Assembly: GCA_004563595.2 (NCBI GenBank)
Contig: CP042461.1
Location: 1,200,001-1,232,000 of the forward strand
Reading direction: 5' to 3'
From: Candidatus Saccharimonadota bacterium
GTDB taxonomy: Bacteria; Patescibacteriota; Gracilibacteria; BD1-5; UBA6164
Length of the DNA: 32,000 nucleotides
A program made the position numbers and the translations under genes. The notes under the pieces are model-generated. The model saw only the letters and a list, made by a program, of their open reading frames with translations. It did no database searches and was not told where the DNA came from. Below are positions 977 through 32,000 of this stretch, in pieces (the stretch's first letter is position 1; each line of letters begins with the position of its first letter).

Positions 977-3589
977 CTATCCACTACAACTTACACATTC
1001 TTTCACATCTAAACTCATTGATCTTACATAATACACTGTTTTAATCCCTTGTTTCCAAGATTTCATGTAGTATCTATATAAGTCAGCTGGAGATGTTTCT
1101 TGGGGGTTTATAATCCATTCAAATGATGCTGATTGGTCAATCCATTTGTAGACAACACTCATCATATCAATAACATCTTCCATATCCATGTTTACGTACT
1201 CTTTGTAATACCAGAAATTTTCAGAGTTTAGGTTGGGGGCAACTACAACTGTTGGAGCAACCTTATTTGTTTCTACGAAATATCTCTTATAAATCGGGAG
1301 CATAGCAGCTGTTGTTCAGACGACTCATGCTGTTGAAGTATTTGGAGCTGGAGCTAAGTGATATGCAAACCTCATACCATCTTTTTTGATATTATCAATA
1401 AGTTTACTCCACTTACCAGACATTTTAGAGTTATTTTTAAACCAATTTTTATCTTTTCAAATTATGATTCATTTTGACCATTCCGATCATTCATATATAT
1501 CATATGTACCTCTTTGTTTTGCTAATTCATTTGAAGCTTTAAATGTATGATATGCAAATAATTCCATAACTTCATCCATTTTATCTCTTGCTTCTTTTGT
1601 ATCATAAGCAAGCTTACTACATGCTAAGAATTCTGCTACTCATAAGAATCATACTCATACTGACCTATATTTTTTTGCTGTCAATTCAGCTTCTTTGATT
1701 GGATAATAATTCAAATCAATAACATTATCAAGAATCCTCATTACAACTGGAGTTACTTTTTCTATTTCCTCAGCTGTATTTACTTTCCCAATATTTATTG
1801 AAGCCAGATTACATACTACTGTATCTCAAGGAGTATATTTGATAACTATATTACCATCCTCAATTGCTTCTTCTACATATTTAGAAGCTGATGTATTTTG
1901 ACAAATCTCAGTACATAATTGTGTAGAATAAATATTTCAAGCATGTTTATTTGGATTGAGTTTGTTTACGGTATCACGATAGAATACATATGGCATTCCT
2001 GTTTCAACGGTAGATTTCATGAATTTTTTAAATAATTCTTTTGCATTTACTGTTCTTTTGAGTTCCAAACCTGCATTTTTTTCACATTCTAAGTAAAATG
2101 CTTCAAACTCTTCATTAAAACAATCTTGAATTACTTTCCCTGTTTTATCTTTTACTTCTTTTGGATCAAAAAGTGTCCAATCTCCATTTTCTTCTACCCT
2201 TTTCATAAATAAATCAGGAATTGAAACAGCTGGAAATACATCAAATGCTTTTGCTCTGATATCTCAAGTTTCTGTTTGAAGATCAAGAAAATCAAATATA
2301 TCTCTATGCCACATATCAAGAGTTACACTGATAGATCCCATTCTTGCTCAAAGTTGATTTACAGCAATAGCAGTATCATTAATAACCTTTATCCATGGAT
2401 TTACTCATCCTGAAACTCACTTAATTCCTCTGATAGTTCCCCCTCTTGATCTAATATTTCATAGATATACTCAAATTCATCCACCAAATTTTGAGATTTG
2501 AGCCATATTTTCAACATTATGATAAATTGCTCTTAAGTCATCATCTAAGTTTAATTTAAAACATGATGATAATTGATGATAATTTGTTCTTGAGTTTAAT
2601 AGTGTTGGAGTTGGAAGTGATATTTTCCCTGTAGAACAATATTCGTATATCTTAAGTGCTGTTGCGAGCCTTGTTTCTTTGGGTTCTGGAATTGCTAAAA
2701 ATAATGCTGCACTCATATACATTTCTTGTGGAAGCTCTTTTACTACTCCGTTTGGATTTAATAGGTATCTTTTTTTATACATCAACATTGTTGTATAATT
2801 ATAAGAAAGGTCTGTATGTTTATCTAGTTTTGATCATGCTTTTAAGATATCTTCATCACTATAATATTTATAATAATCTTTATAGTAGTGTCCAAGCTCT
2901 ATATATTCATCAAAGAGCTTTTTATAATGTTTTGCTTCATAGATTTTATGAATATCCATATTTCTATTGTATGAAGCTTCCTTGTATAAATCAATAAGTG
3001 AAAGCCTCCCCCCAATAAATTGCCATGAAGTATTTTCAACAGAAATCAAATCAACAGCTGATTTAATCATCATTTTTGTGATATCTGAAGTTTTCATATC
3101 TTCAACGATATATTTTTTCAAACTATCAGCTAATTCTTCAAATTTACAAACTCTTGCAAGTTTATACGATACTTTTTTATATGTTTCTTTTACCTTATCC
3201 ATATCAAAGGCTTCTTTTTTCCCATTTTTCTTTATTATCTTGAGAGTATTTGTTTCTATTTTTTTCTCTAATTTTTCTTTTTGCTTTTGTCTTTTTTTCC
3301 TTCTCTCATCTCTATAAATAATGAATTGTTTTGCCACATCAAAATATTTTTGCTCCATAAGCTCAACTTCAATTGCATCTTGAATATCTTCAATAGTAAT
3401 AACATTACCAGGTTCCGATGAAACGAGATTATCTTCTAATTTTTGGATTATATTATCAGTGATAGCATCAACAAAAGATATGTCTAATATATTACTTGCT
3501 TCAGCAGCTTTTTCGATTGCTCTTTCCACTCTACTTCTATCAAATAGAACAAGATCAGATTCCCTTGTTTTTATCACTTTTAATTTCAT
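977..3589 (-). CDS. nrdA: Ribonucleoside-diphosphate reductase alpha subunit, class Ia, with two N-terminal ATP-cones (870 aa)
   Basis: Four ORF-track fragments (977-1303, 1937-2206, 2477-2788, 2834-3589) share one frame. I scanned the gaps between them and found only TGA, no TAA/TAG. Supporting motifs:
- Two ATP-cones, MKLKVIKTRESDLVLFDRSRVERAIEKA... and LKIIKKNGKKEAFDMDKVKETY.
- ISLPTPTLLNSRTNYHQLSSCF.
- QLCTEI.
- C-terminal GIKTVYYVRS (class I Tyr-Tyr pair) and ECVSCSG. Confidence 0.9.
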
Positions 3590-3789
3590 ACAAAAATAGT
3601 TATTTACTAATATTTTCCTCTCCTTTAATCTAATGATTTTTCAAAATTTTGCTATAATTTTGTATACAGTTGTGTTAAAAAAAAGCAGGATAATGTTAAA
3701 AACTATAAATAGACCTCTCTATTAAATAATCTTATAAAAATTAAGTCAAAAAAATTTGCTTTTTTGTGGAAAATTATCTGAATTATTAA

Positions 3790-3826: not shown

Positions 3827-4879
3827 CTATAGTTCTGGCTTATCAATCTGTAATACCTCTACTTTTCACCCGACTTCTCCATCTGTTATTTTTAGAACAT
3901 CTTTATCTATCAAATGGAACTTTTTATAGGTCTCATTATAATGTGAAACAGTTGTCCCCAAAGTCTTTCATAATTTCTCTAAATATTCTTCGTATGCATT
4001 TAAATGCTTTCATAACTTTGCTACATGCTTTTGAATATCTTTTGCAGCTTCTTCAATCTGCAAAGCTTTTAATCACTGTAATACCGTTTGTAAGTATGCA
4101 TAAAAACTTGTTGGAGAAACTATGATTACTTTTTTTTCTTTAAATGCATATTCTATTAAGTCTGCAGTGTTTATTTTCATATTTCATACTTTGTTTATGA
4201 GGAGATCATAATAGATTCCTTCACTTGGAATAAACATAAAAGCAAATTCCATTGTTCCTTCTTCGGGACGTATATATTTACTCGTTTCATCAATTCTCTT
4301 TTTGAGGTCATTTCTAAATTCTTTTTCATGCTTCTCTTTTTCATGTTTTGTTTCAGCCTCGAGTATTCTATTATAATTTTCTAAACTAAACTTTGAATCA
4401 ATTGGAATTATTTTATCTTTTACAAAGATCACAGCATCAACTGCTTCCCCATTTTTGAAACTATATTGCAATGAATAGTTATTAGGAGGAAGAATATTCT
4501 TTAATACACTTTCTAAAAAATATTCTCATAACACTCCTCTTTGTTTTGGGTTTTTTAAAATACTTTCAAGTCCCTCTAGTTGACCTCATATATCTTTAAT
4601 CTGTTTGTTTGTTTCCTCTAAACTAGTTAATTTTTCTGTTATTTCTTCTATCTTTTTTGTTGACTCAACATTTATTTTTGAACTCGTCTCAAAATTCTTC
4701 GAAACATTCCTGTTTGATTCTCAAAGTTTATAATCAATTGTTTTATTCAGGTTTAAAATTTGCTCTTGAAGCAATTTTAAGCTCGAAGTATCTGTCTGAG
4801 TATTTTGTTTATTTAATAGGTAAAATATAATTCCTATTAAGCCTGACACTAGAAGTATCAAAAAAATTTCTAAATTCAT
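3827..4879 (-). CDS. rmuC: DNA recombination protein RmuC (350 aa)
   Basis: One frame from ATG 4879 to TAG 3827-3829, hand-checked for TAA/TAG. It has an N-terminal TM segment (MNLEIFLILLVSGLIGIIFYLL) followed by a coiled-coil. The RmuC core reads GEAVDAVIFVKDKIIPIDSKFSLENY ... FAFMFIPSEGIYYDL. Confidence 0.8.
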
Positions 4880-4896
4880 ATTTTTACATTAAAAAT

Positions 4897-5490
4897 CTAA
4901 CTTAATTCCCTAATACAATACGGTAAAATATCTCCTGCACCTTTCATCTCTTCAGGAAGCCCTTCTAGTACTCTTTCTACATCTTTCCCCTGATATCACA
5001 TATTCACCAAGGTATCTTTGATCTGTTCAAATAAACTTCTGTCAATAAAGACTTTTGCAGTATTTGTTCATGATGAAGTATCCACCTGTACTTTAAATTC
5101 TTTATCTTTCAATTCTAAAATTATTTTTTCAGCCATCTTTTTTCAAATTCACTTGATCCCTTCTATTGTTTTATTATCAGCTGATTGAATTGCATGAATC
5201 AGTCTCTCTATTCAAAGAGAGAGTATTTGCATCGCAACCTTTCCTCATACTCATGAGATTTTAATAAGCTCAGTAAATACATCTTTATCCGATTTTTCTA
5301 GGAATCCGAATAAAGCTTCAGAATTTTCTGTCTTATGATGATATATAAATATCTCCGCATCATCATTTAAAACAAGGTTTGCAGAGATAATTTCATTAAT
5401 TACTACTGCGTACCCAACCCCTCCTGATGTCAAAATAGTAAGTGAATTAAAATCTAACTCTATTATTTCTCATTTTAGGTATGAAATCAT
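4897..5490 (-). CDS. ruvA: Holliday junction branch-migration complex subunit RuvA (197 aa)
   Basis: The N-terminus MISYLKGEIIELDFNSLTILTSGGVGYAVVIN matches the RuvA consensus (..L.G.......GGVGY.V), and the G of LKG is a TGA codon. The frame has no TAA/TAG. The stop lies 17 nt upstream of the rmuC start, so the two genes are probably an operon. Confidence 0.85.
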
Positions 5491-5656
5491 TTCTGGTACT
5501 GCTAAAAAATAATGTATATGAATAGTATATAAAAATTGAAATAAAATGCAATAATAGCAAAAATTATCCTCCTCCAATAAGTTTTTTTCTCTATTTTTTG
5601 AATTTTATTTCCATATATGGTACTCTTATTAATAATAATATTAACTTCTGACTCTC

Positions 5657-7561
5657 ATGAGTGAATCTTTCTTCGAAAATACAACTGAACATGGATATAA
5701 TGGTCCTGATATGTTTGATGAAATGAAAAAACCAAAAACAAAAGAAGCTATTGAAGATAGAGTTTTTTGTTTGGCTAGTAAAATTCCTGATATCATAGAT
5801 CAAAATATGAATCTTATGCCTCTAAAACCCAAGATAAGAAATGAAAAAATTGTTGAAAGTATATATAATTCAAAATTTGAAGGCACGTACCAAGGTACCC
5901 CTGAACAATTAGCCAGAGTTTTTTCATACCTTTTTATAAGAACAAGGGATACTCAAGAAATTCAAGGGAATTATGTACAAATCAAGTTAAACAATGAAAA
6001 TAGTACTATAAATGTTAGAAGTGAATGAGATTTAAATACAAAATTTTCCTCTATTAAGCATTGAGTAACCGTAAAAGACTTATGAGAAACAAAAATTTTT
6101 AAAGACCGTAATTATAAAAAAGTAGAGTTTTACTCAGTAGATCAAGGTGTAAAAATATGATTTATTGCTGAAAATTTAACAGAACCAGTAAAAACAAAAA
6201 GCCTCAAACAATTAGACGGATATATACGTTCGATATGACTCAACCCAACTATAGAATTAAAAAGAGCTGCATTTAATAGAGTATACCCATTCAAGGATTA
6301 TAGATGAGATTTAGATCCTTCAGATGCATTCAGTCCAGCCCATGAAAAAGAGATACGTGCCAGAATTTCAAGAGATAATAATGAAGTGTACCATAAACTT
6401 GCTCAAGAATATGAGCTCAGAAGACTTATTGATACCAATAAAATAAGACTCTATTGTCATGAATCAATAGAAGGATTCAAAAAAGAAATAACTGATACAA
6501 AAGAATCTAATGCAAGAATGGAAGAAGCAACACCTACAGAACTTAAAGAATTAAAAGAATCAGTTCAAGCTCCTTCAAAAATAACGAATCCAGACCTTCC
6601 TAAAAAGAAAACTCCTGAAAATACGATTCAAAGAAAACAAAAAGCAGCAACTATAGAAACAAAAAATAACCTTGTAGAATCTGTATTGAGCAAAATTGAA
6701 AACAACGAAAATATCCAAGATTACCTTCAAAATAAACATCCAGACCTTCCTCAAGAAAAACGTTTGGCAAAATTTAAAAGGAGTATATGAGCAGCAAAAG
6801 ATAATTTTGCAGATAACATAATGACTTTTACTTATCTCCTACAACATTCATATAAAAATTGAGAAAATATTCAGTTATGGGAATATTATCAAGAAAAAAC
6901 TTGAAAAAACTGGTCAGATCTTTGAAAATCAGGAGAAAATGCTCTTTTTAGAAAATATGCATGAGAAGTACAAGAAATCTATTCATGAAAGAAAATGTCA
7001 AACAACCTTACTATCATGCGTGGGCTTATTATTGAGCATGAACTTGGGACAAAATTTGAAAATGTTATAGAGGAAGAAAAAGAGAAATCTCTCTTTAATT
7101 TTAAAGAACATTGACTCGATCATTCTCAAATTCAATGAAGAAAAGCTGAGTTTGATGGAGATTGAAAGACTTATTGCTCAAAAACTGTACGTTTATATTT
7201 AAATAAATATTTAAATAAATATGGAATCGTAGCAGCTTGGCCAGCATCTGCACAAGCTTTCATAAATAAAGCTGAGAAAAACTGATCCCAAGCACTTAAT
7301 AGAGCAACTCTTGCACAGGAATTAAAATCCCGTTTTACAAAAAATTGAGAAACTATATTTGACGTATTTCCGAAAACATCTAATGGACATAGATGTATTT
7401 GTTTTATATGAAAAGATGCAAACGTATATGTACTTGATGATTATAATTATTCAAGAAAACCAGTACTCCTCACTCAATATTTAAACAATCCTAAATACCA
7501 AAATCTTACTTTCATATTAAACAAAGGATATAAAGTATCTCCAAATACTATGCAATCCTAA
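5657..7561 (+). CDS. Hypothetical protein (634 aa), no signal peptide; possible C-terminal papain-like Cys/His hydrolase fold
   Basis: ORF-track pieces 5657-6028 and 6386-6790 share one frame. I translated the whole frame by hand to TAA at 7559-7561 and it is interrupted only by TGA. It has a K/E-rich central region. The C-terminus reads GDGKTYCSKTVRLYLNKYLNKYGIVAAWPASAQ ... TSNGHRCICFIGKDANVYVLDDY, a Cys...His...Asp spacing reminiscent of NlpC/P60 or CHAP-type enzymes. Confidence 0.6.
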
Positions 7562-7600: not shown

Positions 7601-7690
7601 TCCTTAAAAATACTCCAAAACTCATTTTGAAAAAATCCCTTTTTGAATATAATCTGGGCGTATTTTTTAAAGAAATAAACACATAAAAAC

Positions 7691-10333
7691 ATGATAGAAC
7701 AAATAATAAAGAGCATATTTGGAGATCCGAGTGAAAAAAGAGTAAAAGAAATCACAAAAGATATCAAAAAAATCCATGAAAATGAAGAAAGCTTCAAGAA
7801 TTATTCACTTGATGACGTTAAGAATAAAACAGCTGAATTCAAGGCTTTATTTGAAGGACTTGATTTCAAAAATGAAGAAGATTCTAAAAAAATGAGCTCT
7901 CTTCTTGATGATATCAAACTTGAAGCATTCGCACTTGTAAAAATAGCTTGTACACTTATTAATGGGCAAGACTTTAAGTTATCAGATGGGAGGTCATTCA
8001 CTTGGAATATGATTCCATATGACGTTCAACTTGTTTGAGGGCTTTCAATTCACTCAGGAAGTATTTCAGAAATGAAAACATGAGAATGAAAAACACTCGT
8101 TGCTACCCTTCCAGCATATTTAAATGCACTTACTGGAAATACTGTACAAATTGTTACCGTAAATGACTATCTTGCTACCAGAGATTCTGAAGAAATGTGA
8201 ATCTTATATAAATCCCTCGGACTTACCGTTTGAGTTATTTATAATTCTCAACCAAGAGATGAAAAGAAAAAAGCTTATGAATGTGACGTAGTATACGCTA
8301 CAAATAATGAGCTTGGATTTGATTACCTCAGAGATAACATGGTCTGAACTCTGGAAGATAAAGTTCAATCCCCTCTTTTCTTTGCTATCATTGATGAAGT
8401 AGATTCTATTTTAATAGATGAAGCAAGAACTCCACTGATTATCTCTATGCCTGATAACGAACCTACCAGTAAGTATGGGAAGTTTGCCACTCTCTCAAAA
8501 CACCTTGATAATGGGGTGCATTACAAAATAGATGAAAAACAAAAAACAGCCACTCTCACTGAAGACGGGATTAAAAAAATAGAAGAATTACTCAAAATAG
8601 ATAATATATATGTTTCTGCTCATTATAATGATCTCCATCATGTAGAAAATGCCCTCAAAGCAAAAGCAGTATATAACAAAGATAAAGATTACCTCGTAAA
8701 CAATGGAGAGGTCATGATTATTGATGAACATACTTGAAGAGTACTTGCAGGGAGAAGATATTCTGAATGACTTCACCAAGCATTGGAAGCAAAAGAAGGA
8801 GTAGAAATACAACAAGAATCAAAAACACTCGCATCAATTACATTTCAAAATTATTTTAGAATGTACTGGAAACTCTCAGGAATGACAGGTACTGCAAAAA
8901 CAGAGGAAGAGGAATTTTACAAAGTATATGGACTTGAAACTCTTAGCATCCCAACAAACAAACCTATTGCAAGAAAAGATGAAAAAGACCTCCTCTTCAA
9001 AAATGAAAAATGAAAATTTGATTATGTCATTGAGCTTATTAAAGAGCTTCATGAAAAAGGTCAACCTATCCTTGTTTGAACGGTTTCTGTTGAAAAATCT
9101 GAATATTTAAGTGAAAGACTCAAAAAAGAAGGAGTTTCTCATAATGTGCTGAATGCAAAACACCATGAAAGTGAAGCTGAGGTTGTAGCACATGCTTGAC
9201 AAAAATGAGCGATCACTATTGCAACAAATATGGCATGAAGATGAACAGATATCAAACTCTGAGAATGAGTAATTGAACTTGGATGACTTATTATCCTTGG
9301 GACTGAGAAGCATGAGACAAGAAGAATCGATAATCAATTAAGAGGACGTGCATGAAGACAATGAGACCCTTGAATGACTCAATTTCTTATCTCTCCAAAT
9401 GATGATGTTATGAGAATATTTGGATGAGATAAACTCTTTGGAGTCTTCAACTCTCCTATGTTTGCTTCCCTTCCTGACAATGAACCTCTTGCGCAAAGTG
9501 GAATGTTAACAAACAAAGTTACATGAGTACAAAAACAAGTAGAATGACATAATTTTGATATCAGAAAACATATACTTGAATATGATGATGTTATCAACAA
9601 ACATAGAACTATCATCTATGAAAGAAGAAATAAAATTCTTAATAGCGAAAACATTGATAGTGATATACATATGATGGTCAAAAATCAAATTCAACAGTTT
9701 GTAACTGCAGAATTAACAAAATCATGAGAAGAAATCAATAAAAAAATACTGAAAAAACATGTAAATGAATTTTTAGGTTTTGAGTTGATTGATGACACAA
9801 TCGAAAACGATGATATAAATGGAATTCAAGACAAAGAAGAATTAGCAACATATATAGCAAATACAGCATCAAATGAACTTACAAACCTGAAAGGAAAAGC
9901 TGCTGACATAGAACAGTTCTATACTTTAGAGAGAAGAATAGTTCTCCAATCAATTGATGAACTTTGGATGAGACATATCGATGCCATGAGTAGACTCAGA
10001 GAAGAAGTTGCTTTTGAAGGATACGCTCAAAGAAACCCTCTAGTCGTGTATAAAGAAAAAGCTTTTGAAAAATTTAATACTCTTATCTGAGAACTTGAAT
10101 ATAAAGTTATAAAAGCTATCTTCTCAGTAAAAACTATTTCTGAAGTTGATGAAGTTCAACTTAATAGCGAAGATTTTGAAATAAATGAAAACGAATTAGA
10201 AAATCTTCTTGATAGCTTTAGTAAAGATAAACAAGTAGATTCAACTCCTACTCAGAAAGGAAATCCATTATTTGCAAAACCTGGAAATACTCCAAAAGCA
10301 GTAAATAATAAAAAGACTAAAATTAGAGTATAA
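7691..10333 (+). CDS. secA: Preprotein translocase ATPase SecA (880 aa)
   Basis: ORF-track pieces 7691-8038, 8447-8737, 8783-9013 and 9785-10090 share one frame, and I hand-scanned the gaps. Supporting motifs:
- PYDVQLVGG, with TGA at 8036-8038.
- Walker [23 protein letters not shown], where both Gly codons are TGA (8081-8083 and 8087-8089).
- [22 protein letters not shown].
- IATNMAGRGTDIKLG.
- [18 protein letters not shown].
There is no C-terminal Zn-finger Cys cluster. Confidence 0.97.
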
Positions 10334-10434: not shown

Positions 10435-10854
10435 CTAATCCTCTCTTTTTATAAAATTTATTTTATGTAAATTTAAAAGCATTTCAATTAATGTTAGCAT
10501 TCCGTAATCGCAACTCAAAACACTATAGAATAGTATATTATCTCGTTTTGGAGATTCAGAATAATTTACTTCTATGATTTTTATGTTTCCTGATGATAAT
10601 ATTTTTTCAATGCTAAAAGAAAACCTACCAAATTGGTTTTCTTTAATATCGAGACCTCTTCGTTCTACACCAGAACATTCATTCACAACTTTAAATTTGC
10701 TCGTGCCTATACCATTTTCAATTCCATTAACTATTTTCTCCAATAAGCTTTTAACGTCTTTTACTCCACCCTTTTTTTCTTCTCCTACATTAGATTCTTC
10801 CAAAATATACTTCTCCTTTTTACTTCTGAGATGATGTTCATAACCAAAGCACAT
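10435..10854 (-). CDS. Small hypothetical protein (139 aa), possibly a PUR-alpha-like (DUF3276-type) ssDNA/RNA-binding protein
   Basis: An intact ORF with no internal TGA. The segment SGVERRGLDIKENQFGRFSFSIEKI resembles the PUR repeat signature (..fDvKEN.rGrFl.I.E). This is recalled by eye only. Confidence 0.4.
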   Translation of the reverse strand: MCFGYEHHLRSKKEKYILEESNVGEEKKGGVKDVKSLLEKIVNGIENGIGTSKFKVVNECSGVERRGLDIKENQFGRFSFSIEKILSSGNIKIIEVNYSESPKRDNILFYSVLSCDYGMLTLIEMLLNLHKINFIKRED

Positions 10855-11023
10855 TCAAAATATGGAAAAACATATAAATTGCAAATTACTTTAAAATAAT
10901 ATGTCAAAAAGTAGGTTTTTTTTTAACAATGCTGGGGTTTTCCTATTCGTCAATCTATTTTTCTGTAAAATTATACTCAACTATGTTATTATAATAAAGA
11001 TATTTTAAATAACTTATAAGACT

Positions 11024-14031: not shown

Positions 14032-16765
14032 GTAATTAAGACTTCAGACTTTTCAAGAAGATTAAATAAGTTTTTTCAATATTACTTTTTAATATCTTCA
14101 TCTTGATCTTGTAGTTAATTCCCTTCTCCTTGTTATTCTTTGTTAAGATATAAGAGTCTATATTCTTCAATAACTTTGTCTTGAAAAATAGTACCTTTAT
14201 ACTTTTCTCCTTCTTGTATTTAATAATAAGAGTATCTAATCTTGCTCAAAGTTTGTTCACTATATCATTCTCTGATAAGTATACTCACACACTACTTGCT
14301 GTTCCAGTTTCTGCTGTTACAGTTGTATTGGCTTCTCTTTTCAATGCTTTTGCAAACAGTTTGAACGTTGCGAGTATCTTCACTTTGTGTTCTCTTGTAC
14401 TTTGTTTCGCTTGTCTGGCTAATATATAATTCTCTACGTCTTTGATAAAAGTATTTCTGTATTCTATTACTTTCTCATCATTATCTTTCTGCTTTTGTTC
14501 GATTACTTTGTCGACTCTCTTCTCTATCAATTGAAGGATTGTCATTTCTGAATGGTATTTCTTCAATGTTCATCATCATGTACTGTCTGTACTACTTCAT
14601 GTTCATGTTCATCCACTATTCAACTCTACTACATCTTCTTCTCAACAGAGACTTCATAGTTTCCCATATTTACATGATACTTCGTCTTGGACATACCATT
14701 TGTAAGTCGTTGTTGATCATGGGATCAGTTTACATGTGAGTTGTTCGTCTTTACAGGTTGGAATATAACTTCATCAACCTCAACCTCCTCATCAGCCTCC
14801 TCAACCTCAGCTTGAACTTGAACTTCATCAGCTACTTGTACTTGCTGTGGCTACTGAAAAGTTAATCGTATAATCACTTACATTTTCATTTGAATCAGTG
14901 TCCATACATCTTACATAGTAAGCATAACTTGTTCAGTCTGTAAGTCATGTTATGTTTGCTGTATGTGTGATTCCTCATGTTGCTGTTGTAAATATGTCTG
15001 TCATTGACGCATATGTTGTATTTACTACTGTTGAGTATTTACATGTTCATATTTCATCTGTATTTAATGTCAGATTCACAGCTGTCGTTCCTGATACTTG
15101 TTCTCAATTTGGTAATCCATTTGAGAGTATTGGAGCGGTTACATCAACGAGAGTGGCTACTGAAAAGTTCAGTGTGTAATCTGTTGTTGTTTCATTACTT
15201 GATCCATCTATACATCTTACATAGTATGTGTGTGATGTTCCATTGGTAAGTCATGTTATATTTGCTGTATGTGTAATTCCTCAGGTTCCTGTTGTAAATA
15301 TGTCTGTCATTGATGCATATGTTGTATTTACTACCGTTGAGTATTTACAAGTAGAGTTTTCATTGGTATCTAATGTCAGATTCACAGCTGTTGTTCCTGA
15401 AGCTTGTTCTCCGTTTGGAAGTCCATTACTAAGGATTGGTGCTGTTGCATCAACTACGTTTGCTACTGAAAAATTCAGTACGTAATCTGATGTGTTTTCA
15501 TTACTTGATCCATCTATACATCTTACATAATACGTATATGATGCTCAGTCTGTAAGTCATGTTACATTTGTTGTATGACTTGTATTTCATGTCGTTGTAA
15601 AGGTATCTGTCATTGATGTATATGTTGTATTTACTACTGTTGAGTATTTACATGTTGATGCTTCATTGGTATCTAATGTTAGATTCACATTTGTTGTTCC
15701 TGAGGCTTGTTCTCCGTTTGGAAGTCCATTACTAAGGATCGGTGCTGTTGCATCAACTACGTTCGCTACTGAAAAGTTCAGTGTGTAATCTGTGGTTGTT
15801 TCATTATTTGATCCATCTATACATCTTACATAATACGTATATGATGTTCCATCTGTCAGTCATGTTACATTTGTAGAATGACTTGTATTTCATGTCGTTG
15901 TAAAGGTATCTGTCATTGATGCATACGTTGTATTTACTACTGTTGAGTATTTACATGTTGATGCTTCATTCGTATCTAGTGTCAGATTCACATTTGTTGT
16001 TCCTGAGGCTTGTTCTCAGTTTGGAAGTCCATTACTTAAAAATGGTGCTCATGTGTCTGGAGTATTTGCTACTGAGAAGTTTAATGTATAATCTGTTGTG
16101 GTTGCATTAGAGTTTCCATCCATACATCTTACATAATACGTATGTGATGTTCCATCTGTAAGTCATGTTATGTTGGTTGTATGGTTTGTATTTCATGTCG
16201 TTGTAAATGTGTTTCACATTGCTCAATATGATGTGTTTGCATTTGGAGAGTATCTACAAGTTGCATTCTCATCGGTATCTAATGTCAGATTTACATTTGT
16301 TGTTCCTGAGGCTTGCTCTCCACTTGGAGTTCCGTTCGATAGAATCGGTGCTGTTGTGTCTGGAGTATTTGCTACTGAGAAATTCAGTGTGTAGTCTGTT
16401 GTATTTACATTTGATACTGAGTCGATACATCTTACGTAGTACGTATATGATATTCCATCTATCAGTCATGTTATGTTGGTACTATGTGTTGTATTTCAGG
16501 TTGTTGTAAATGTATTCCCTATTCATGCGTATGTAGTATTTGAATTTATTCAATATTTACAGGTTGCATTTTCGTCTGTGTCTAATGTGAGATTCACATT
16601 TGTTGTTCCTGAGGCTTGTTCTCCACTTGGTGTTCCATTCGAAAGTACTGGAGCTGTTGTGTCTGGAGTTACGGCTACAGAAAAGTTTAATGTGTAATCT
16701 GCTGTTGTTGCATTACTTGATCCATCTATACATCTTACATAATACGTATGTGATGTTGCATCTGT
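13996..16765 (-). repeat. Segmental duplication, copy 1 (terminator + tail + linker + first ~6.3 Ig repeats of gene A)
   Basis: It is colinear with 27532-30310. The offset is 13536 bp, becoming 13545 after a 9-bp indel near 14815/28350. In the 60-nt blocks I compared I saw 0-2 mismatches per block. Identity collapses after about 16765/30310. Confidence 0.9.
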
Positions 16766-19700
16766 AAGTCCTCATATACTCACACTATGTGTTTGTGATC
16801 ATGTTGTAGCAAAGTTGTTTATCATTGATCCATAAGCTACACTTGCAGTTGTAGAATATTTACAAAATGCATCCTCATCTGTAGATATACTGAGTGTTAT
16901 ATTTGTTGTTCCTGCAGCTTGTTCTCCACTTGGGGTTCCGTTCGAAAGAATTGGAGCTGCAGTATCCGGTGTATTTGCTACAGAGAAATTGAGTGTGTAA
17001 TCTGCTGTGTTTTCATTACTTGATCCATCCATACATCTTACATAGTAAGTATATGATGTTGCATCTGTCAGTCATGTTATGTTGGTTGTATGACTTGTAT
17101 TTCATGTTGTTGCAAAGGTATTTATCATACTTGAATATGCTGTATTTGCACTTGTTGCATATCTACAGGTTGCATTTTCAACAGTGTCTAATGTCAGATT
17201 CACATTCGTTGTTCCTGAAGCTTGTTCTCCACTTGGTGTTCCATTCGAAAGTACTGGAGCTGTTGTGTCTGGAGTGTTCGCTACAGAAAAATTTAATGTG
17301 TAATCTGTTGTTGTTTCATTACTTGATCAGTCGATACATCTTACATAGTACGTATATGAATTCCCATCTGTTAATCATGTTACATTTGTAGAATGTGATG
17401 TTATTCATGTAGTAGTAAATGTATTTGTCATACTTGTGAATACTGTATTTGCAACTGTAGAGTATTTACAAGTTGCATTCTCATCTGTATCGAGTGAGAG
17501 ATTTATATTTGTTGTTCCTCAGGCTTGTTCTCCACTTGGAGTTCCGTTTGATAATACTGGAACCGTTATGTCTGTCGAAGTAGTTGATCCTGTTGAAAAT
17601 TTATAAGCAGCAATAACAGGTGGATTCGTACCAGTTGCTTGATTATAATCAGCTTTATAAATAGATACAAATAACGTACCTGATACAGGGTCGAATGTTC
17701 CTCCACTGATTTGATTCACTTTACTTATTTGGAAAGGAGCATCGAAAATACCAACATCATAAGGAGTCACATCATATGCATTCATTATACCATTTTTGAC
17801 ATCTACAAGATCATTCACATCATACATCCAATAATAAGGGTATGTATCATACTCATCTATTATATAGTGACCTTGAATACCAGTATGAGGAGAGACTCCA
17901 TATGACATACCACTTTCATGACCTCCTGACATTCACAGTACTAAATATGTACTTGTTCATGGAACTATCATACCAAATGATCCTTCTGATGCATGAGTCC
18001 ATAAATCATTTGTACCACTACTATTGTATAAGTCTTCTAGAGGTACTAGGCCGTTTGGTAAAGTATACTTTAACAACTCAGTTGTCGGAATATCACTAAT
18101 AGAAGCTGAATTATCAAGTACATCGGTAGCATTAAATGCAAATGCAGCAGGACCAACACTCGTACTGTATATCAATGCCCTTGCTGTACTATTAGTAAAA
18201 CCTCCTATATGTGTTCCACCAAGAGCACTTTGCCATTCAACAGGAGTAGGTGAGATCCATCCAGCCGCATACGATTGTCCCTCCATAGTGAAATAACCAT
18301 CAACTTCTGATGTAGCAAGGTTATTTGAATCACGAAGAATAAGTGTATTTGTTGAACTGTATGGACTTTGATCATAAAAATCATAATGATTTACGAGTAA
18401 GTGCCCATTTTCGGCATAGATACCATTTATACGACTTTGTCCATTAACTTTATGAACTGCTTTATCAAGTACATTCGTAAAGTTTTGAAGAGGTGCCTCA
18501 GCAGTATTTAGTGCTGTTATATCAGTACTATTTACAAGTTCAGGAATTGAAAATTCAGCAATAGACTTACCATATTCGTGTCCAGCAACAAATAATGAAT
18601 TATTATCAGCATTGAATCATATAGCTCCATATGAAAAACTAGCATTCGCATAGTCACCAACTCAAAAATTACCTGACGGTAAACGAAAAGCTCCCTGATA
18701 ACTAATGTTATCTAAAGTAAGGAGTGGGAACGTAGATCATGAAGATGAAGTTATCGAATCTGTAACGTTGAAATTTATAACAAAATCTAGATTATTTTCA
18801 TTACTTGATCCATCGATACATCTTACATAATATGTATATGATACTCCATTTGTAAGTCCTCATATACTCACACTATGTGATTGTGATCATGTTGTTGCAA
18901 ATGTATTTATCATTGATCCATACGCTGTGTCTGCAGTTGTTGAATATTTACAAAATGCATTCTCATCGGTAGAAACGCTCAGTGTTGTATTTGTTGTTCC
19001 TGATGCTTGTTCTCCTGTAGGAGTTCCATTTGAAAGTATTGGAGCTGTAGTATCAACGACAACAATAGTTCCATCAACATATTCATATGCTCAGATATCA
19101 TATGTCCCTTGTCTCATGATCCCATTTAAATCTCTTGCAATTGGAGCAAAGCTTGGTAAAGCTTTATCAAAAACAAGTGAATTTTTTCATGAATCAACTG
19201 CGGGGCTTCATGATTCTATGTTTAAATTATCACTCGATGTATTTACAAATAATGGATCTAGATTATCTACATTATTTACATCAGCAATACAATCAGTACA
19301 ACTATCGTAGTTTCCTATACCGTAATATAAATTATTTGAGAGGTTCACTGTTGATGCTTCTCATATGCTCATATAATGATTCCCTGTAGGACCTGGGAAA
19401 TCCGATGTCATGTGTACTATATTATTATCAAACTTTGTATCAAATGTTGTTCCAGCAGATGTAGAAAATCAAATATATCCTGAATTATAAAATGTATTAT
19501 TATAAAAATATCCTGCTCAATTAATACTATTATGTTTCGATGTTGGTGCATATCAAGTATGATATGAATCAGCAGCATCATAGGTTCCACAATTCAAAAT
19601 TAAATTATTATACACATATGTTGGTTCTGGGATAACTTCCCCAGGGTCATAACTCAAATCGTATACATTTAATGCAGTTGCTCTTTGATAATCACAACTT

Positions 19701-25572: not shown

Positions 25573-25601
25573 TTGACAATGTAGCCATTAGTTTGAATAA
25601 T
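25573..25601 (+). promoter_or_regulatory. Candidate sigma70-type promoter for the pilin gene
   Basis: TTGACA (25573-25578), a 17-nt spacer, then AATAAT (25596-25601). This is about 105 nt upstream of ATG 25708. Confidence 0.35.
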
Positions 25602-25707: not shown

Positions 25708-27516
25708 ATGAATATACAAAAAAAATGATTTACCCTTGTAGAACTTATCGTTGTTATCACAATACTTGCAATACTCTGAACCATAGCTTTTTTATCATTT
25801 CAATGATATAGTCGACAAGCAAGAGACAGTGTAAGAATATCTAATTATTCAAATATAAATACGACGCTTGAAGTCTATGAAGTACGAGCATGAAAATATC
25901 CAAAACCTGAAAACACTGACACCATTAGTTATGCAGGAGTAAATATTTGGCAGCAATGAGTGATATGAGAGAGAATACAATCTCTCCTAAGAATTGCATG
26001 AGATTTAAACGATACAAAATTTGGAAGTGAAATATCATACTCCGTAACTACTTCATGAAAAGATTATGAAATTGCTTGATTATTTGAATGATCTGAACTA
26101 ACCCAAAATGTTACAAATCAAACATATGCATCAACTGATGTGATTGCCTATGTCTGATGAAGTTATAACTCAAAATATTTAAAAACAAGTACTGGGTGAG
26201 AAACTCATATTATTTCCATCCCAAGTTTAATACTTAATACAAGGTGAGTTGATCAAGAAATCCAAGTCTGAGTTCAAAGTAATAATTTTGTTATAGGAAA
26301 TAAAAAAACTATTCCATGAAGTTTTATTTGATGAGATTTCAATTCCGAAGAAATAGTATTTACTTCTAGGTTGTTATACCAATGAACTGATTGTTCACCT
26401 CTCAATGAAATGGCCTATTATAATCTTGAAGTGGGGTTAAAACAATCTTACTGAACAGGTACTTTCCAAACTATAGAAAAATATGATCAATATCAAACAT
26501 GATATATTCATCCGTTCTATTTAGAAGAAAATGCATTACTACTTGGAAAAGAATTAAGATGTTCAAGTAACCCTATTTTTCTAAAGTCAGATGAGGTGTT
26601 ACCTCTTAGTTGTGTAAATGAAGATGGTACTTTTGAATGATTTTCATCTTGAGATCTTATAAGTGATAGTTGTTTACATACTTATGAATGAGATTCCGAT
26701 TGGATCGTTGAAAATTGAAGTTGAAACTGAGGGTGAAATGCTGTAAGAAACATTCCTGCTTTAGGAGGTAACAAAACAACATCACTTATATATAATATGG
26801 TCTTAAATAAGACGGCTAATCTTAAATTTGATTATAAGTTAGATTTTGATTATTGAGAAGTAACCTTTTATATTAATTGAGTAAAGTATGAGAAATGGGG
26901 GTATGAAACTTGAGGTATAACAAATGGAGTTGGTGCTTACCAAACCTATACTACGTCACTCCTACCACCATGACAATATGAATTTAAATTTGAAGCGTAT
27001 ACAAAATCACCTCCTAATGCATATGCAAATTTATATATAGATAATATTGTTATAGACGAGACTTGTATTGATGGATGACCTACATGTGGATGGACTCTAT
27101 GATTTGAAGATGGGAGCACTAATCCATATGATTTATTTTCTTTCTCTTGAGTTTCAACAACACCTTGGACAAGAATAACTGACTCTTCAGAATGAACTTA
27201 TGCTCTAAAAAATCCTATACTTGGACAAAACGAAAGTACATATTTAACTTATGAGAAGACTCTTACACAAACGGGGGCTCTCAACTTTGATTATAAATTG
27301 TCACAAAGCACTGCAATCGTTTACTTTTCTATTAATTGAGCTACAGACGATTCATGGTGATATTCAAAATCCTATACCTGATCCACAAACTATCAATCAT
27401 ACACCACCTCTAGCTTGCCCCCTTGAACATATCAATTTCAATTTCAAGTACGTACTCTGAGTTATAGTAATCCATATGCGAATTTTTATCTTGATAATAT
27501 AACTATAACTCCATAG
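25708..27516 (+). CDS. Large type IV pilin / pseudopilin-like protein (602 aa) with two C-terminal beta-sandwich (MAM/CBM-like) modules
   Basis: The whole frame was hand-translated and contains only TGA interruptions.
- N-terminus: MNIQKKGFTLVELIVVITILAILGTIAFLSF is a canonical prepilin signal (G|FTLxE, Glu5). The cleavage-site Gly is a TGA codon (25726-25728).
- C-terminus: two related modules end in ...YTTSLLPPGQYEFKFEAYTKSPPNAYANLYIDNIVID (about 26690-27075) and ...YTTSSLPPGTYQFQFQVRTLSYSNPYANFYLDNITIT (about 27076-27513). Confidence 0.85.
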
Positions 27517-27529
27517 TAAACAATCACAC

Positions 27530-27567
27530 AAAAAAACAGATACTCATTTGCGAGTATCTGTTTTTTT
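27530..27567. terminator. Bidirectional intrinsic terminator shared by the convergent pilin gene and giant gene B
   Basis: Stem cagatactc (27537-27545) / gagtatctg (27552-27560), flanked by an A-run and a T-run. It lies 14 nt after the pilin TAG and 4 nt before the gene B TAA. It is a paralog of the terminator at 13996-14031, with one loop substitution. Confidence 0.8.
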
Positions 27568-30310
27568 GTAATTAAGACTTCAGACTTTTCAAGAAGATTA
27601 AATAAGTTTTTTCAATATTACTTTTTAATATCTTCATCTTGATCTTGTAGTTAATTCCCTTCTCCTTGTTATTCTTTGTTAAGATATAAGAGTCTATATT
27701 TTTCAATAACTTTGTCTTGAAGAATAGTACCTTTATACTTTTCTCCTTCTTGTATTTAATAATAAGAGTATCTAATCTTGCTCAAAGTTTGTTCACTATA
27801 TCATTCTCTGATAAGTATACTCACACATTACTTGCTGTTCCAGTTTCTACTGTTACAGTTGTATTGGCTTCTCTTTTCAATGCTTTTGCAAAGAGTTTGA
27901 ACGTTGCCAGTATCTTCACTTTGTGTTCTCTTGTACTTTGTTTCGCTTGTCTGGCTAATATATAATTCTCTACGTCTTTGATAAAAGTATTTCTGTATTC
28001 TATTACTTTGTCATCATTATCTTTCTTCTTTTGTTCGATTACTTTGTCCACTCTCTTCTCTATCAATTGAAGGATTGTCATTTCTGAATGGTATTTCTTC
28101 AATGTTCATCATCATGTACTGTCTGTACTACTTCATGTTCATGTTCATCCACTATTCAACTCTACTACATCTTCTTCTCAACAGAGACTTCATAGTTTCC
28201 CATATTTACATGATACTTCGTCTTGTACATACCATTTGTACGTTGTTGTTGATCATGGAGTTAATTTACATGTGAGTTGTTCGTCTTTACAGGTTGGAAT
28301 ATAACTTCATCAACCTCAACCTCCTCATCAGCCTCCTCAACCTCAGCTTGAACTTCAGCCTGATGAACTTCATCAGCTATTTGTACTTGCTGTGGCTACT
28401 GAAAAGTTAATTGTATAGTCTGTTGTTGTTTCATTTGAATCAGTGTCCATACATCTTACATAGTAAGTGTGTGATGTTCCATCTGTCAGTCATGTTATGT
28501 TTGCTGTATGTGTGATTCCTCAGGTTGCTGTTGTAAATATGTCTGTCATTGATCCATATGTTGTATTTACTACTGTTGAGTATTTACATGTTCATATTTC
28601 ATCTGTATTTAATGTCAGATTCACAGCTGTTGTTCCTGATACTTGTTCTCAGTTTGGTAATCCATTTGAGAGTATTGGAGCGGTTACATCAACGAGAGTG
28701 GCTACTGAAAAGTTCAGTGTGTAATCTGTTGTTGTTTCATTACTTGATCCATCCATACATCTTACATAGTATGCATAACTTGTTCCGTTGGTAAGTCATG
28801 TAATATTTGCACTATGTGTGATTCCTCATGTTCCTGTTGTAAGTATGTCTGTCATTGACGCATATGTTGTATTTACTACCGTTGAGTATTTACATGTTCA
28901 TATTTCATCTGTATTTAGTGTCAGATTCACAGCTGTCGTTCCGGATACTTGTTCTCAGTTTGGTAATCCATTTGAGAGTATTGGAGCGGTTACATCAACG
29001 AGAGTGGCTACTGAAAAGTTCAGTACGTAATCTGTTGTTGTTTCGTTTGAACTTGTATCCATACATTTCACATAGTATGTATAACTTGTTCAGTCTATCA
29101 GTCATGTTACATTCGTAGAATGTCCTGTATTTCATGTCGTAGTAAATGTATCTGTCATTGATGCATACGTTGTATTTACTACGGTTGAGTATTTACATGT
29201 TCATGCTTCATTCGTATCTAATGTCAGATTCACGTTTGTTGTTCCTGAAGCTTGTTCTCCGTTTGGAAGTCCATTACTAAGGATCGGTGCTGTTGCATCA
29301 ACTACGTTCGCTACTGAAAAGTTCAGTGTGTAATCTGTGGTTGTTTCATTATTTGATCCATCTATACATCTTACATAATACGTATATGATGTTCCATCTG
29401 TCAGTCATGTTACATTTGTAGAATGACTTGTATTTCATGTCGTTGTAAAGGTATCTGTCATTGATGCATACGTTGTATTTACTACTGTTGAGTATTTACA
29501 TGTTGATGCTTCATTCGTATCTAGTGTCAGATTCACATTTGTTGTTCCTGAGGCTTGTTCTCAGTTTGGAAGTCCATTACTTAAAAATGGTGCTCATGTA
29601 TCTGGAGTATTGGCTACTGAGAAGTTTAATGTATAATCTGTTGTGGTTGCATTAGAGTTTCCATCCATACATCTTATATAATACGTATGTGATGTTCCAT
29701 CTGTAAGTCATGTTATGTTGGTTGTATGGTTTGTATTTCATGTCGTTGTAAATGTGTTTCACATTGCTCAATATGATGTATTTGCATTTGGAGAGTATCT
29801 ACATGTTGCATTTTCATCGGTATCGAGTATCAGATTCACGTTACTTGTTCCTGAGGCTTGTTCTCCACTTGGGGTTCCGTTCGAAAGAATCGGTGCTGTT
29901 GTGTCTGGAGTATTTGCTACTGAGAAATTCAGTGTGTAGTCTGTTGTATTTACATTTGATACTGAGTCGATACATCTTACGTAATACGTATATGATATTC
30001 CATCTATCAGTCATGTTATGTTGGTACTATGTGTTGTATTTCAGGTTGTTGTAAATGTATTCCCTATTCATGCGTATGTAGTATTTGAATTTATTCAATA
30101 TTTACAGGTTGCATTTTCGTCTGTGTCTAATGTGAGATTCACATTTGTTGTTCCTGAGGCTTGTTCTCCACTTGGTGTTCCGTTCGAAAGTACTGGAGCT
30201 GTTGTGTCTGGAGTTACGGCTACAGAAAAGTTTAATGTATAATCTGTTGTTGTTGCATTACTTGATCCATCTATACATCTTACATAATATGTATATGATG
30301 TTGCATCTGC
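27532..30310 (-). repeat. Segmental duplication, copy 2 (partner of 13996-16765)
   Basis: See copy 1. The plus-strand shadow ORFs 30018-30242 and 16473-16697 translate to identical 74-aa strings. Shadow ORFs 29461-29655 and 15916-16110 differ at 2 of 64 positions. Confidence 0.9.
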
Positions 30311-32000
30311 TAATCATGTTATGTTGGTTGTATGACTTGTATTTCAGGTTGTTGTAAAGGTATCTGTCATTGATGCATACGTTGTATTTACTGCTGTTGA
30401 GTATTTACAGGTTGCATTTTCATCTGTATCTAATGTCAGGTTCACATTCGTTGTTCCTGAGGCTTGTTCTCCACTTGGAGTTCAGTTCGAAAGAATTGGT
30501 GCCGTTGTGTCTGGAGTGTTCGCTACAGAAAAATTTAATGTGTAGTCTGTTGTGTTTTCATTACTTGATCAGTCGATACATCTTACATAATACGTATATG
30601 ATGTTGCATCTGTGAGTCATGTTATGTTGGTTGTATGACTTGTATTTCATGTCGTTGCAAAGGTATTTATCATACTTGCATATGCTGTATTTGCACTTGT
30701 TGAATATCTACAAGTAGAGTTCTCATCAGTATCTAATGTCAGGTTCACATTCGTTGTTCCTGATGCTTGTTCTCCACTTGGAGTTCCGTTCGAAAGAATT
30801 GGAGCTGTGGTATCTGGAGTGTTCGCTACTGAGAAACTTAATGTGTAATTTGTTGTGTTTACGTTTGATACGGTATCGATACATCTTACATAATATGTAT
30901 ATGATGTTGCATCTGTGAGTCATGTAATATTTGTAGTGTGTGTTGTATTCCCTGTTGTAGCAAAAGTGTTTATCATACTTGCATATGCTGTATTTGCACT
31001 TGTTGAATATCTACAAGTAGAGTTCTCATCAGTATCTAATGTCAGATTTACATTTGTTGTTCCTGATGTTTGTTCTCCACTAGGAGTTCCATTTGAAAGA
31101 ATCGGAGCTGTTGTATCTGGAGTGTTCGCTACTGAAAAATTGAGTGTGTAATCTATTGTTGTTTCATTCAAATACCCATCTATACATCTTACATAATATG
31201 TATATGAATTCCCTTCTGTTAATCATGTTACATTTGTAGAATGTGATGTATTTCACGTCGTAGTAAATGTATTTGTCATACTTGTGAATACTGTATTTGC
31301 AACGGTAGAATATTTACATGTTGCATTCTCATCTGTATCTAATGTGAGATTTACATTCGTTGTTCCTCAGGCTTGTTCTCCAGTTGGAGTTCCGTTTGAA
31401 AGTATAGCTGCTGTAGTATCTACTACCGCATTTATCTTGTAGGCAAGGATTACTGGTCAAGCAGCATGATTCTCTCCATCTGCTCTGTTTAAATTCAAAT
31501 ACAATGTGTTTGATACATCATCATATGATCAACCAGCAATTAAGTTTTTTCTTGTTCCATTGAGTCTATATTCAAATGGAGTATTAAATTTTCCATATTG
31601 GTATGGTTTTACTTCGTATGATTGTTTTAATCCATTTTTTACATCTAAGAAATCATTTACATCCCATAACCATATATAGTTATACATATCAAGTGGATCA
31701 TAGGCACATGGTCATCAACATGCTTCTGTTGCACCTGATTGAGTAATCTTGTATCATCCTCCACTTTCATGCATTCATGACATTCAGATCGTTGCATAGG
31801 TTCTGGTTCATGGAATTATAAATCCATATTCTGCTCAAGAATCTTCCGTCCATAAATCATTATCTCCATTTGCATTATATAGATCCCAGTCTCAATATTC
31901 TGCCCACCCTGAAGGTGTCTTTGCTAATACATTACTTAAACCAAAATCTAATAATTTAGTAGTCGGTATAGTTACATTTGTATCGGTTGCATTCAAAAGA
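27572..32000 (-). CDS. Giant surface protein B, C-terminal 1476 codons; the 5' part lies beyond the window
   Basis: It uses the same frame class as gene A. I scanned every codon from 27572 to 32000 and found no TAA/TAG. From the window edge the order is: the unknown-domain homolog (31432-32000), 10 Ig-like repeats, the Gly/Ser linker, the 4-Cys segment and the basic tail. The stop is TAA at 27572-27574. Confidence 0.85.
28396..31432 (-). repeat. Tandem array of 10 coding repeats (303-306 bp) in gene B
   Basis: The FSVA marker recurs at 28396, 28702, 29008, 29311, 29614, 29917, 30220, 30523, 30826 and 31129. Confidence 0.9.

Follow-up and report, generated by a model that had tools for sequence, protein, structure and literature searches.

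The 32,000-nt stretch of DNA analysed here (hereafter the window; positions 1,200,001 to 1,232,000 of contig CP042461.1, assembly GCA_004563595.2) contains a gene at 25708-27516 on the forward strand, which, on balance, probably encodes a modular type IV pilin of Gracilibacteria, a lineage of the candidate phyla radiation, with binding modules at its C-terminus. The assignment draws on a prepilin leader and α1 helix, on a pilin module shared with a large protein family, and on a duplicated C-terminal β-sandwich whose predicted fold resembles carbohydrate-binding modules (CBMs). The protein may occupy a tip or minor position in the pilus and may have lectin activity. All coordinates below are those of the window.

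The gene is recovered only in genetic code 25, in which TGA encodes Gly. Translated in this way, the coding sequence yields 602 aa followed by a TAG stop, and the product is residue-for-residue identical to QFR39677.1 (P0146; homologs are denoted here by P numbers) of Candidatus Gracilibacteria bacterium 28_42_T64, for which GenBank gives the product name 'type II secretion system protein'. With table 11, the same interval contains 41 stops (40 TGA codons and the terminal TAG); the gene is absent from table-11 lists of open reading frames (ORFs), in which no ORF exceeds 251 aa anywhere in the window. TGA specifies 40 of the 60 Gly residues, including Gly-1 of the cleavage site (codon 7), where the first internal TGA is located (MNIQKK*FTLVEL). 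A stop-riddled pseudogene was considered and rejected because all 40 internal stops are TGA codons and lie at positions occupied by Gly in correctly translated homologs. Code 25 applies across the whole window, the G+C content of which is ~30%, and genes of 914, 885, 968, 3,830, and >1,475 aa emerge when it is used. A phage or mobile-element origin was also rejected, given the housekeeping genes in the neighbourhood (Nrd, RmuC, RuvA, and SecA). An earlier note on this DNA, made from the sequence alone, had placed the gene at exactly these coordinates, which are correct provided that code 25 is used, and its estimate of ~595 aa for the mature protein agrees with the 595 aa left after the predicted cleavage.

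Code-25 genomes escape standard ORF callers, and several public protein sets mistranslate Gly as Trp. The best database match, P0001, is the same protein in code 4, with Trp in place of Gly, and shares a 90% cluster with P0146. Public metagenome copies of this kind (P0001, P0003, P0121-P0129, and P0142) have a Trp content of 6-10%. They lower the apparent identity, such that the window protein is 93% identical to itself, and introduce noise into alignments and structure prediction.

The leader MNIQKKG is followed by FTLVELIVVITILAIL, with Phe at +1 and Glu at +5, and the α1 helix is hydrophobic in its N-terminal half and amphipathic in its second half. Both PF07963 N_methyl (30.9 bits vs a curated cut-off of 21.2) and NCBIfam TIGR02532 (29.8 bits vs a curated cut-off of 16.3) match this region, as expected from the class III signal and hydrophobic pilin helix that had been proposed earlier. 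In a single-sequence search, the α1 helices of solved pilins were matched, and one alignment, to Neisseria meningitidis PilE, spans residues 8-150. PDB sequences were also searched with a profile built from 24 family members with correct translations, covering their first ~240-250 residues. At E < 0.2, this gave 22 matches, every one of them to a type IV pilin, a type II pseudopilin, or a pilus-like subunit (best: geopilin, 4e-14; GspG, 7.7e-9; PilE, 2.6e-7), and all 22 cover α1 only. Many relatives (e.g. P0003, P0122, P0124, P0125, P0127, P0129, P0137, and P0142) carry Ala in place of Gly at -1 (KKAFTLVEL). Gly at -1 is almost invariant among classical prepilins; the prepilin peptidase of Gracilibacteria may thus have a relaxed specificity at this position.

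The GenBank product name implies a different role, that of the type II secretion pseudopilin GspG, and the TIGR01710 match to residues 6-68 and the presence of Pfam T2SSG in some relatives are in line with this name. Such a role is nevertheless extremely improbable. The TIGR01710 match reaches 29.5 bits vs an equivalog cut-off of 88.85 and is confined to α1, and the window protein is about four times as long as GspG (~140 aa). Moreover, the paper on the closed 28_42_T64 genome, from which the window most probably derives (hereafter the genome paper; Sieber et al. 2019; PMC6851277), reports that PilQ was not found, consistent with the inferred absence of an outer membrane and hence of a periplasm from which to secrete. 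A GspG role in type II secretion is effectively excluded by this shortfall against the equivalog cut-off, taken together with the absence of PilQ reported for the genome.

More than 500 homologs of the N-terminal module were found, all from Candidatus Gracilibacteria wherever a source was named, save one from Peribacteria, and the best 120 of them are 331-1003 aa in length. Residues 1 to ~180 are common to essentially all 119 listed homologs, and the sharing fades by residue ~260. Beyond this common N-terminus, the relatives bear unrelated domains, such as FISUMP, InlB B-repeat, fibrinogen-like, LamG, LRR, BspA, discoidin, and others. The shortest members among the homologs listed are ~331-338 aa long, suggesting that the basic pilin module of this family comprises ~300 aa. 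P0002, a 750-aa paralog encoded by the same genome, is 81% identical to the window protein over the first 305 residues. Its full-length AlphaFold2 model, with a mean predicted local distance difference test (pLDDT) score of 82.8, contains a helix at residues 10-61, seven strands at 68-174, helices at 238-286, and three separate β-sandwiches. Cys229, Cys285, and Cys302 of the window protein fall within the pilin module, and Cys322 lies just inside the first β-sandwich module. The Cys-containing middle region of the earlier note is thus present, but appears to be the tail of the ~300-aa pilin module rather than a separate element.

According to the genome paper (PMC6851277), the organism encodes GspE, PilB, PilC, PilD, PilV, PilW, and two PilT proteins; PilD and pilus assembly genes, for which a check had been proposed in the earlier note, are therefore reported in this genome. 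The same text counts 15 large 'GspG' proteins with a mean length of 528 aa, labelled as pseudopilins. These agree with the window protein in genome and GenBank naming; the paper gives their count and mean size, whereas the C-terminal module, its fold, and the tandem-array subfamily were worked out here. Against this background and the lengths of the best 120 homologs, the earlier description of the protein as unusually large holds in comparison with classical pilins but not for its own lineage. Three paralogs (P0002, 750 aa; P0006, 438 aa; and P0101, 476 aa) are located on the same 1.34-Mb replicon. We infer that the ~15 paralogs share the pilin module and differ in their C-terminal binding modules, thus forming a repertoire of pilus-borne adhesins.

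The remainder of the window protein consists of two related modules, as had been noticed earlier. The two are 48% identical over 110 residues (E = 1e-27), which indicates a duplication far beyond chance, and both contain all of the motifs quoted for them, i.e. FDYKL, (Y/S)ING...W, YTTSxLPPGxYxFxF, and N(A/P)YANxY(I/L)DNIxI. Module 2 begins at CIDGGPTC and extends as far as the C-terminal residues of the protein (...LDNITITP). The best-conserved parts of the module are CxxGxxxC(G/W)...FE(D/N)G at its start and LDN at its last strand; a disulfide between modules and a structural metal site, of the kind seen in many jelly-roll CBMs, are suspected here.

No Pfam family reached its cut-off on the modules, either in the whole protein or in 38 individual family modules. 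Partial sub-threshold matches were obtained for DUF5013, pullulanase X25, Y_Y_Y, AMPK1_CBM, and MAM. Among these, DUF5013 (PF16405; 20.1 bits vs a gathering cut-off of 28.5) and Y_Y_Y (PF07495; 20.9 vs 26.6 bits) each match only ~35-45 residues about the LPPGxYxF strand pair. MAM (PF00629) falls short of its gathering cut-off of 26.4 bits, at 12.8 bits for the whole protein and 15.9 bits when module 2 is taken by itself, with a weak but near-full-length alignment of residues 459-601 to profile positions 8-153 of 158. A module profile run against PDB sequences gave a single marginal match, to the Bacteroides surface glycan-binding protein SGBP-B (E 0.11).

The module is rare. When 1.84 billion representative proteins were scanned exhaustively with HMMER, using the three-module C-terminus of P0002 as the query and E ≤ 1e-3, it was found in only 28 of them. 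Nearly all full-length carriers have a prepilin signal and the same pilin module, followed by a tandem array of 2-9 module copies, and the proteins reach 1,868 aa. Two copies are present in the window protein (602 aa) and P0003 (596 aa), three in P0002 and P0129 (750 aa each), four in P0124, P0126, and P0127 (904-930 aa), six in P0125 (1,196 aa), seven in P0122 (1,357 aa), eight in P0121 (1,541 aa), and nine in P0128 (1,868 aa). P0133 (843 aa, on a JGI contig of 323 kb) carries five copies behind a lipoprotein-like signal, has a normal Trp content, and contains no pilin module, indicating that the module is an independent, portable unit that is not confined to pilins.

An AlphaFold2 model of P0002 module 2, built with a 36-sequence module alignment, is an all-β sandwich (pLDDT 93; predicted template modelling score 0.87). 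Among solved structures, the best Foldseek E-value was obtained for TmCBM61 bound to galactotriose (E 2.9e-6; template modelling (TM) score 0.59-0.62 over ~133 of 147 residues). The other neighbours include a carbohydrate-binding module of a mannanase, CBM35 of a cycloisomaltooligosaccharide glucanotransferase, CBM4-2, CBM6, CBM36, the MAM domains of neuropilin-1, PTPRK, and meprin, and a domain of the Cry5B toxin. Predicted viral structures resembling the module are domains of tail-fibre, tailspike, and host-specificity (receptor-binding) proteins. The earlier guess of a MAM/CBM-type β-sandwich was thus borne out at the level of the predicted fold, and similarity to carbohydrate- and protein-binding folds (CBM61, CBM35, CBM4, and MAM) was found.

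The modelled fold resembles CBM and MAM, but assignment of the module to any named family is not supported, as identity is 9-19% and sequence cut-offs are not reached. CBM61 (Thermotoga maritima, PDB 2xom/2xon), CBM35, CBM4, CBM6, and CBM36 have the β-sandwich in common with the window module; CBMs, however, sit on glycoside hydrolases, whereas the window modules sit on a pilin. Like MAM, the window module has a Cys at its N-terminus, FE close to its start, and a motif of the D(D/N)I type in its last strand. MAM is essentially a eukaryotic extracellular domain. In fold, the similarity reaches a TM of up to 0.63, whereas in sequence any MAM match is found in only one of the 38 family modules.

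It is quite improbable that the two modules bind no ligand themselves and serve only as structural spacers, i.e. as stalk-like repeats that extend or stiffen the subunit, comparable to the Ig-like repeats of long adhesins. The copy number of 2-9 among relatives is typical of spacer repeats, and the best-conserved residues look like core β-strand positions. In the window protein, nothing follows the modules for them to present, a point that can be read in both directions: a terminal module that has no distal domain to hold out would make little sense as a mere spacer. In addition, the closest structural neighbours are overwhelmingly binding domains.

The CBM-like fold could also be placed in another setting. 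A pilin-like, surface-displayed binding protein acting outside a long retractile pilus would form a short pseudopilus or membrane-anchored assembly that captures glycans or detritus and takes them up. A parallel would be the archaeal 'bindosome', whose sugar-binding proteins have class III signal peptides. The closest folds are those of CBMs in glycan-degrading enzymes and of surface glycan-binding proteins, and the pilin gene lies outside any pilus operon. Moreover, the genome paper (PMC6851277) predicts that the organism lives on compounds derived from a host and on detritus of cells. The same source, however, reports a full retractile pilus machinery with two PilT proteins, and the paralogs bear adhesin domains (InlB, LRR, and fibrinogen-like) rather than solute-binding domains; a role in nutrient capture is therefore regarded as rather improbable.

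Modular pilins were established as a class by Raynaud et al. 2021 (PNAS; PMC8179133), who described >1,200 of them in 264 architectures, with several phyla of the candidate phyla radiation among the commonest carriers. The window protein shows this organization, in that a pilin module is followed, after residue ~305, by two extra modules of ~150 aa each, and the equivalent P0002 module is predicted to fold alone with the high confidence given above. Its pilin module, at ~300 aa, is not small as in the modular pilins of that survey, and its extra module is an uncatalogued β-sandwich that occurs twice here and up to nine times in relatives. The survey held that many modular pilins had been missed owing to modules without signatures (PMC8179133). 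With no Pfam family at cut-off, the modules described here may have been missed by a survey of domain signatures such as this one, and an uncatalogued module family missed by signature databases supports the published suspicion that modular pilins are under-counted.

Two characterized systems are instructive for comparison. PilB (pilin + vWA) and PilC (pilin + concanavalin A-like lectin) of Streptococcus sanguinis resemble the window protein in having a class III signal, a pilin module, and a bulky C-terminal binding-type fold, and likewise function in a monoderm-type envelope. The adhesin role of PilB has been shown experimentally (PMC8179133), whereas adhesion by the window protein is predicted from the fold. 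CofB of enterotoxigenic Escherichia coli (ETEC), a type IVb minor pilin composed of pilin, β-repeat, and β-sandwich domains and proposed to be located at the pilus tip (PMC8179133), is similar to the window protein in carrying β-rich domains beyond current signatures, but no sequence similarity between the two was detected. CofB reportedly works as a trimer that serves as the adapter of a secreted protein, within a type IVb system of a diderm, whereas the window protein has two homologous jelly-roll modules and belongs to a system reportedly lacking a secretin.

In the mechanism favoured here, the modular pilin would be inserted into the membrane via its hydrophobic α1 helix, after which PilD of this genome would cleave it after Gly7 and methylate Phe8. 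By way of the pilin module and α1, the PilB/PilC machinery would then assemble the protein into a type IV pilus, most likely as a low-abundance (sparse) or tip subunit. The two C-terminal modules would project outward and bind a surface glycan or protein of a host or prey bacterium, and PilT-driven retraction would draw the cells together. Such a mechanism would match the modular pilin concept of Raynaud et al. 2021. In relatives of Gracilibacteria, a predatory lifestyle has been shown, with attachment believed to depend on pili and giant surface proteins (as cited in PMC11452946). The proposed mechanism would fit both this lifestyle and the predicted host-dependent lifestyle of Gracilibacteria.

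Several points weigh against the assignment as a modular pilin with binding modules. The gene is apparently monocistronic and is not located beside pilus assembly genes in the window, and it is from the annotation published in the genome paper (PMC6851277) that the pilus machinery is taken to be present. Both structure models are those of the paralog P0002 rather than of the window protein (the equivalent modules are 56-71% identical), and several rows of the alignments behind them are Trp-for-Gly mistranslations. No pilin was found among the top 50 Foldseek matches of the full-length P0002 model in PDB, which are dominated by tandem CBM, Cry, Vip3, and reelin arrays. Finally, a TM score of ~0.6 at 10-20% identity, as obtained with the modelled fold, is no proof of binding.

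The position of the protein in the filament was considered separately. If the window protein were the major (shaft) subunit, pili would consist largely of pilins of at least 330 aa and be covered with a bottle-brush coat of binding modules, and the ~15 paralogs would be interchangeable or co-polymerizing shaft subunits. Every listed member of the pilin family is at least ~331 aa in length, and α1 is most similar to those of the major pilins and pseudopilins geopilin, GspG, PilE, and PilA. In the genome paper (PMC6851277), only PilV and PilW are named as pilins other than the 15 large GspG-like proteins. Raynaud et al. (PMC8179133) also left a location in the filament body open for modular pilins, given a flexible linker. 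In contrast, the modular pilins examined so far (S. sanguinis PilB and ETEC CofB) are minor or proposed tip subunits (PMC8179133), and subunits of 600-1,868 aa at every filament position would be sterically demanding. A shaft position is therefore considered unlikely. Equally doubtful is the wider proposal that Gracilibacteria lack a small major pilin altogether and that their pili are polymers of modular pilins of at least 330 aa, with the subfamily of 2-9 modules serving as a multivalent glycan-binding 'brush' along the shaft. If this were true, module number and the choice of paralog would set the host range, and the architecture would be one unseen in any characterized type IV filament.

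The protein itself has a GenBank entry and was included, undescribed, in the genome paper's count of 15 large GspG proteins, and the modular-pilin design is published. What appears to be new, within the libraries and literature searched, is the appending to pilins of an uncatalogued, rare β-sandwich family with a CBM/MAM-like fold. The tandem arrays of 2-9 copies, giving pilins of up to 1,868 aa, also appear to be new; the most extreme multi-domain case singled out in 2021 has 860 residues (PMC8179133). Gracilibacteria and other members of the candidate phyla radiation do not make their own lipids or many other building blocks and are thus predicted to depend on other cells. A shared polymerization module combined with varied binding modules is a plausible host-recognition toolkit for such bacteria. 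The window protein offers a concrete candidate, i.e. a compact C-terminal fragment of ~300 residues with two β-sandwich domains predicted at high confidence, and the suspected host is Colwellia.

Table 1. Features of the pilin gene and its surroundings in the 32,000-nt window
Feature	Position	Strand	Basis or remark
Ribonucleotide reductase gene	977-3718	-	code-25 ORF
RmuC gene	3827-4888	-	code-25 ORF
RuvA gene	4897-5604	-	code-25 ORF
Predicted 634-aa orphan protein	5645-7561	+	no Pfam match at E ≤ 0.01
SecA gene	7679-10333	+	code-25 ORF
Predicted 139-aa orphan protein	10435-10890	-	no Pfam match at E ≤ 0.01
PKD-domain predicted membrane protein, 962 aa	11009-13912	+	Pfam
Giant gene A, 3,830 aa	14036-25528	-	code-25 ORF
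Promoter-like site TTGACT-18-TAAAAT	25562-25533	-	faces giant gene A
Promoter-like site TTGACA-17-AATAAT, 11/12	25573-25601	+	107 nt upstream of the pilin start codon
Class III (prepilin) leader MNIQKKG	25708-25728	+	Pfam N_methyl and TIGR02532; cleavage predicted after Gly7 (TGA)
Pilin α1 helix, residues 8 to ~61	25729-25890	+	matches to α1 of solved pilins/pseudopilins; helix 10-61 in the P0002 model
Rest of pilin module, residues ~62-305 (predicted β-sheet head, then helical subdomain)	25891-26622	+	homolog alignment, P0002 model
β-Sandwich module 1, residues ~306-452	26623-27063	+	hmmsearch envelope 300-452; 71% identity to P0002 module 1
β-Sandwich module 2, residues 453-602	27064-27513	+	hmmsearch envelope 453-602
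Perfect 18-bp hairpin with A- and T-run flanks	27528-27569	.	between the convergent stops of the pilin gene and giant gene B
Giant gene B	27572 to beyond 32000	-	code-25 ORF, >1,475 aa

The pilin gene is divergent from giant gene A and convergent with giant gene B (Table 1), and is indeed wedged between two giant genes, as had been described. No pilus assembly gene, prepilin peptidase gene, ATPase gene, or platform gene was found in the 32-kb window. The spacer of ~180 bp between giant gene A and the pilin gene is AT-rich and contains one good sigma-70-like site per strand. A back-to-back promoter region shared with giant gene A, as suggested by the earlier note, is plausible on the basis of the consensus hexamers on both strands, but the case is weak: with 21 promoter-like sites, the region is no richer than shuffles of this AT-rich sequence (17.0 ± 3.5). 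The hairpin between the convergent stops has a folding energy of -24 kcal/mol (z = -6.9), and none of 200 shuffles folds as well. It is probably a bidirectional intrinsic terminator, in which case the pilin gene is probably monocistronic.

On either side of the pilin gene lies one copy of a direct repeat, formed by the 3' 3.5 kb of giant genes A and B (14036-17551 and 27572-31096), the two copies being 91.5% identical, and many further internal repeat matches of ~300 bp are present in the two genes. The JGI and ENA contigs carrying P0001 (417-419 kb) end within giant gene B, ~1.9 kb past the pilin gene, as if the assembly had broken at the 3.5-kb repeat. Were the 3.5-kb copies to recombine, the pilin gene and most of giant gene A would be lost.

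The product of giant gene A is a secreted protein with an N-terminal LamG/concanavalin A-like domain (Pfam, 110.6 bits), three repeat units of ~430 aa, a region that is β-helix-like by eye, many FN3/Ig-like repeats of ~100 aa (APILSNGTPSGEQ...YYVRC), a tract of poly-Gly, and a C-terminal tail that is basic and helical; giant gene B has these repeats and this tail in common with it. By analogy with the giant proteins described in Vampirococcus, this product is probably a surface adhesin. The two predicted orphan genes are placed among the genes for RuvA, SecA, and the PKD-domain protein. None of the six frames of the window contains the hypervariable PTD repeat described in the genome paper (PMC6851277). 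The PKD-domain protein contains two C-terminal PKD domains (111 bits), and its cytoplasmic N-terminus matches the first ~105 positions of the Pfam profile T2SSE, which represents the type II/IV secretion ATPase, with 24.7 bits, just below the cut-off of 24.9; this protein may be an accessory component of the pilus system.

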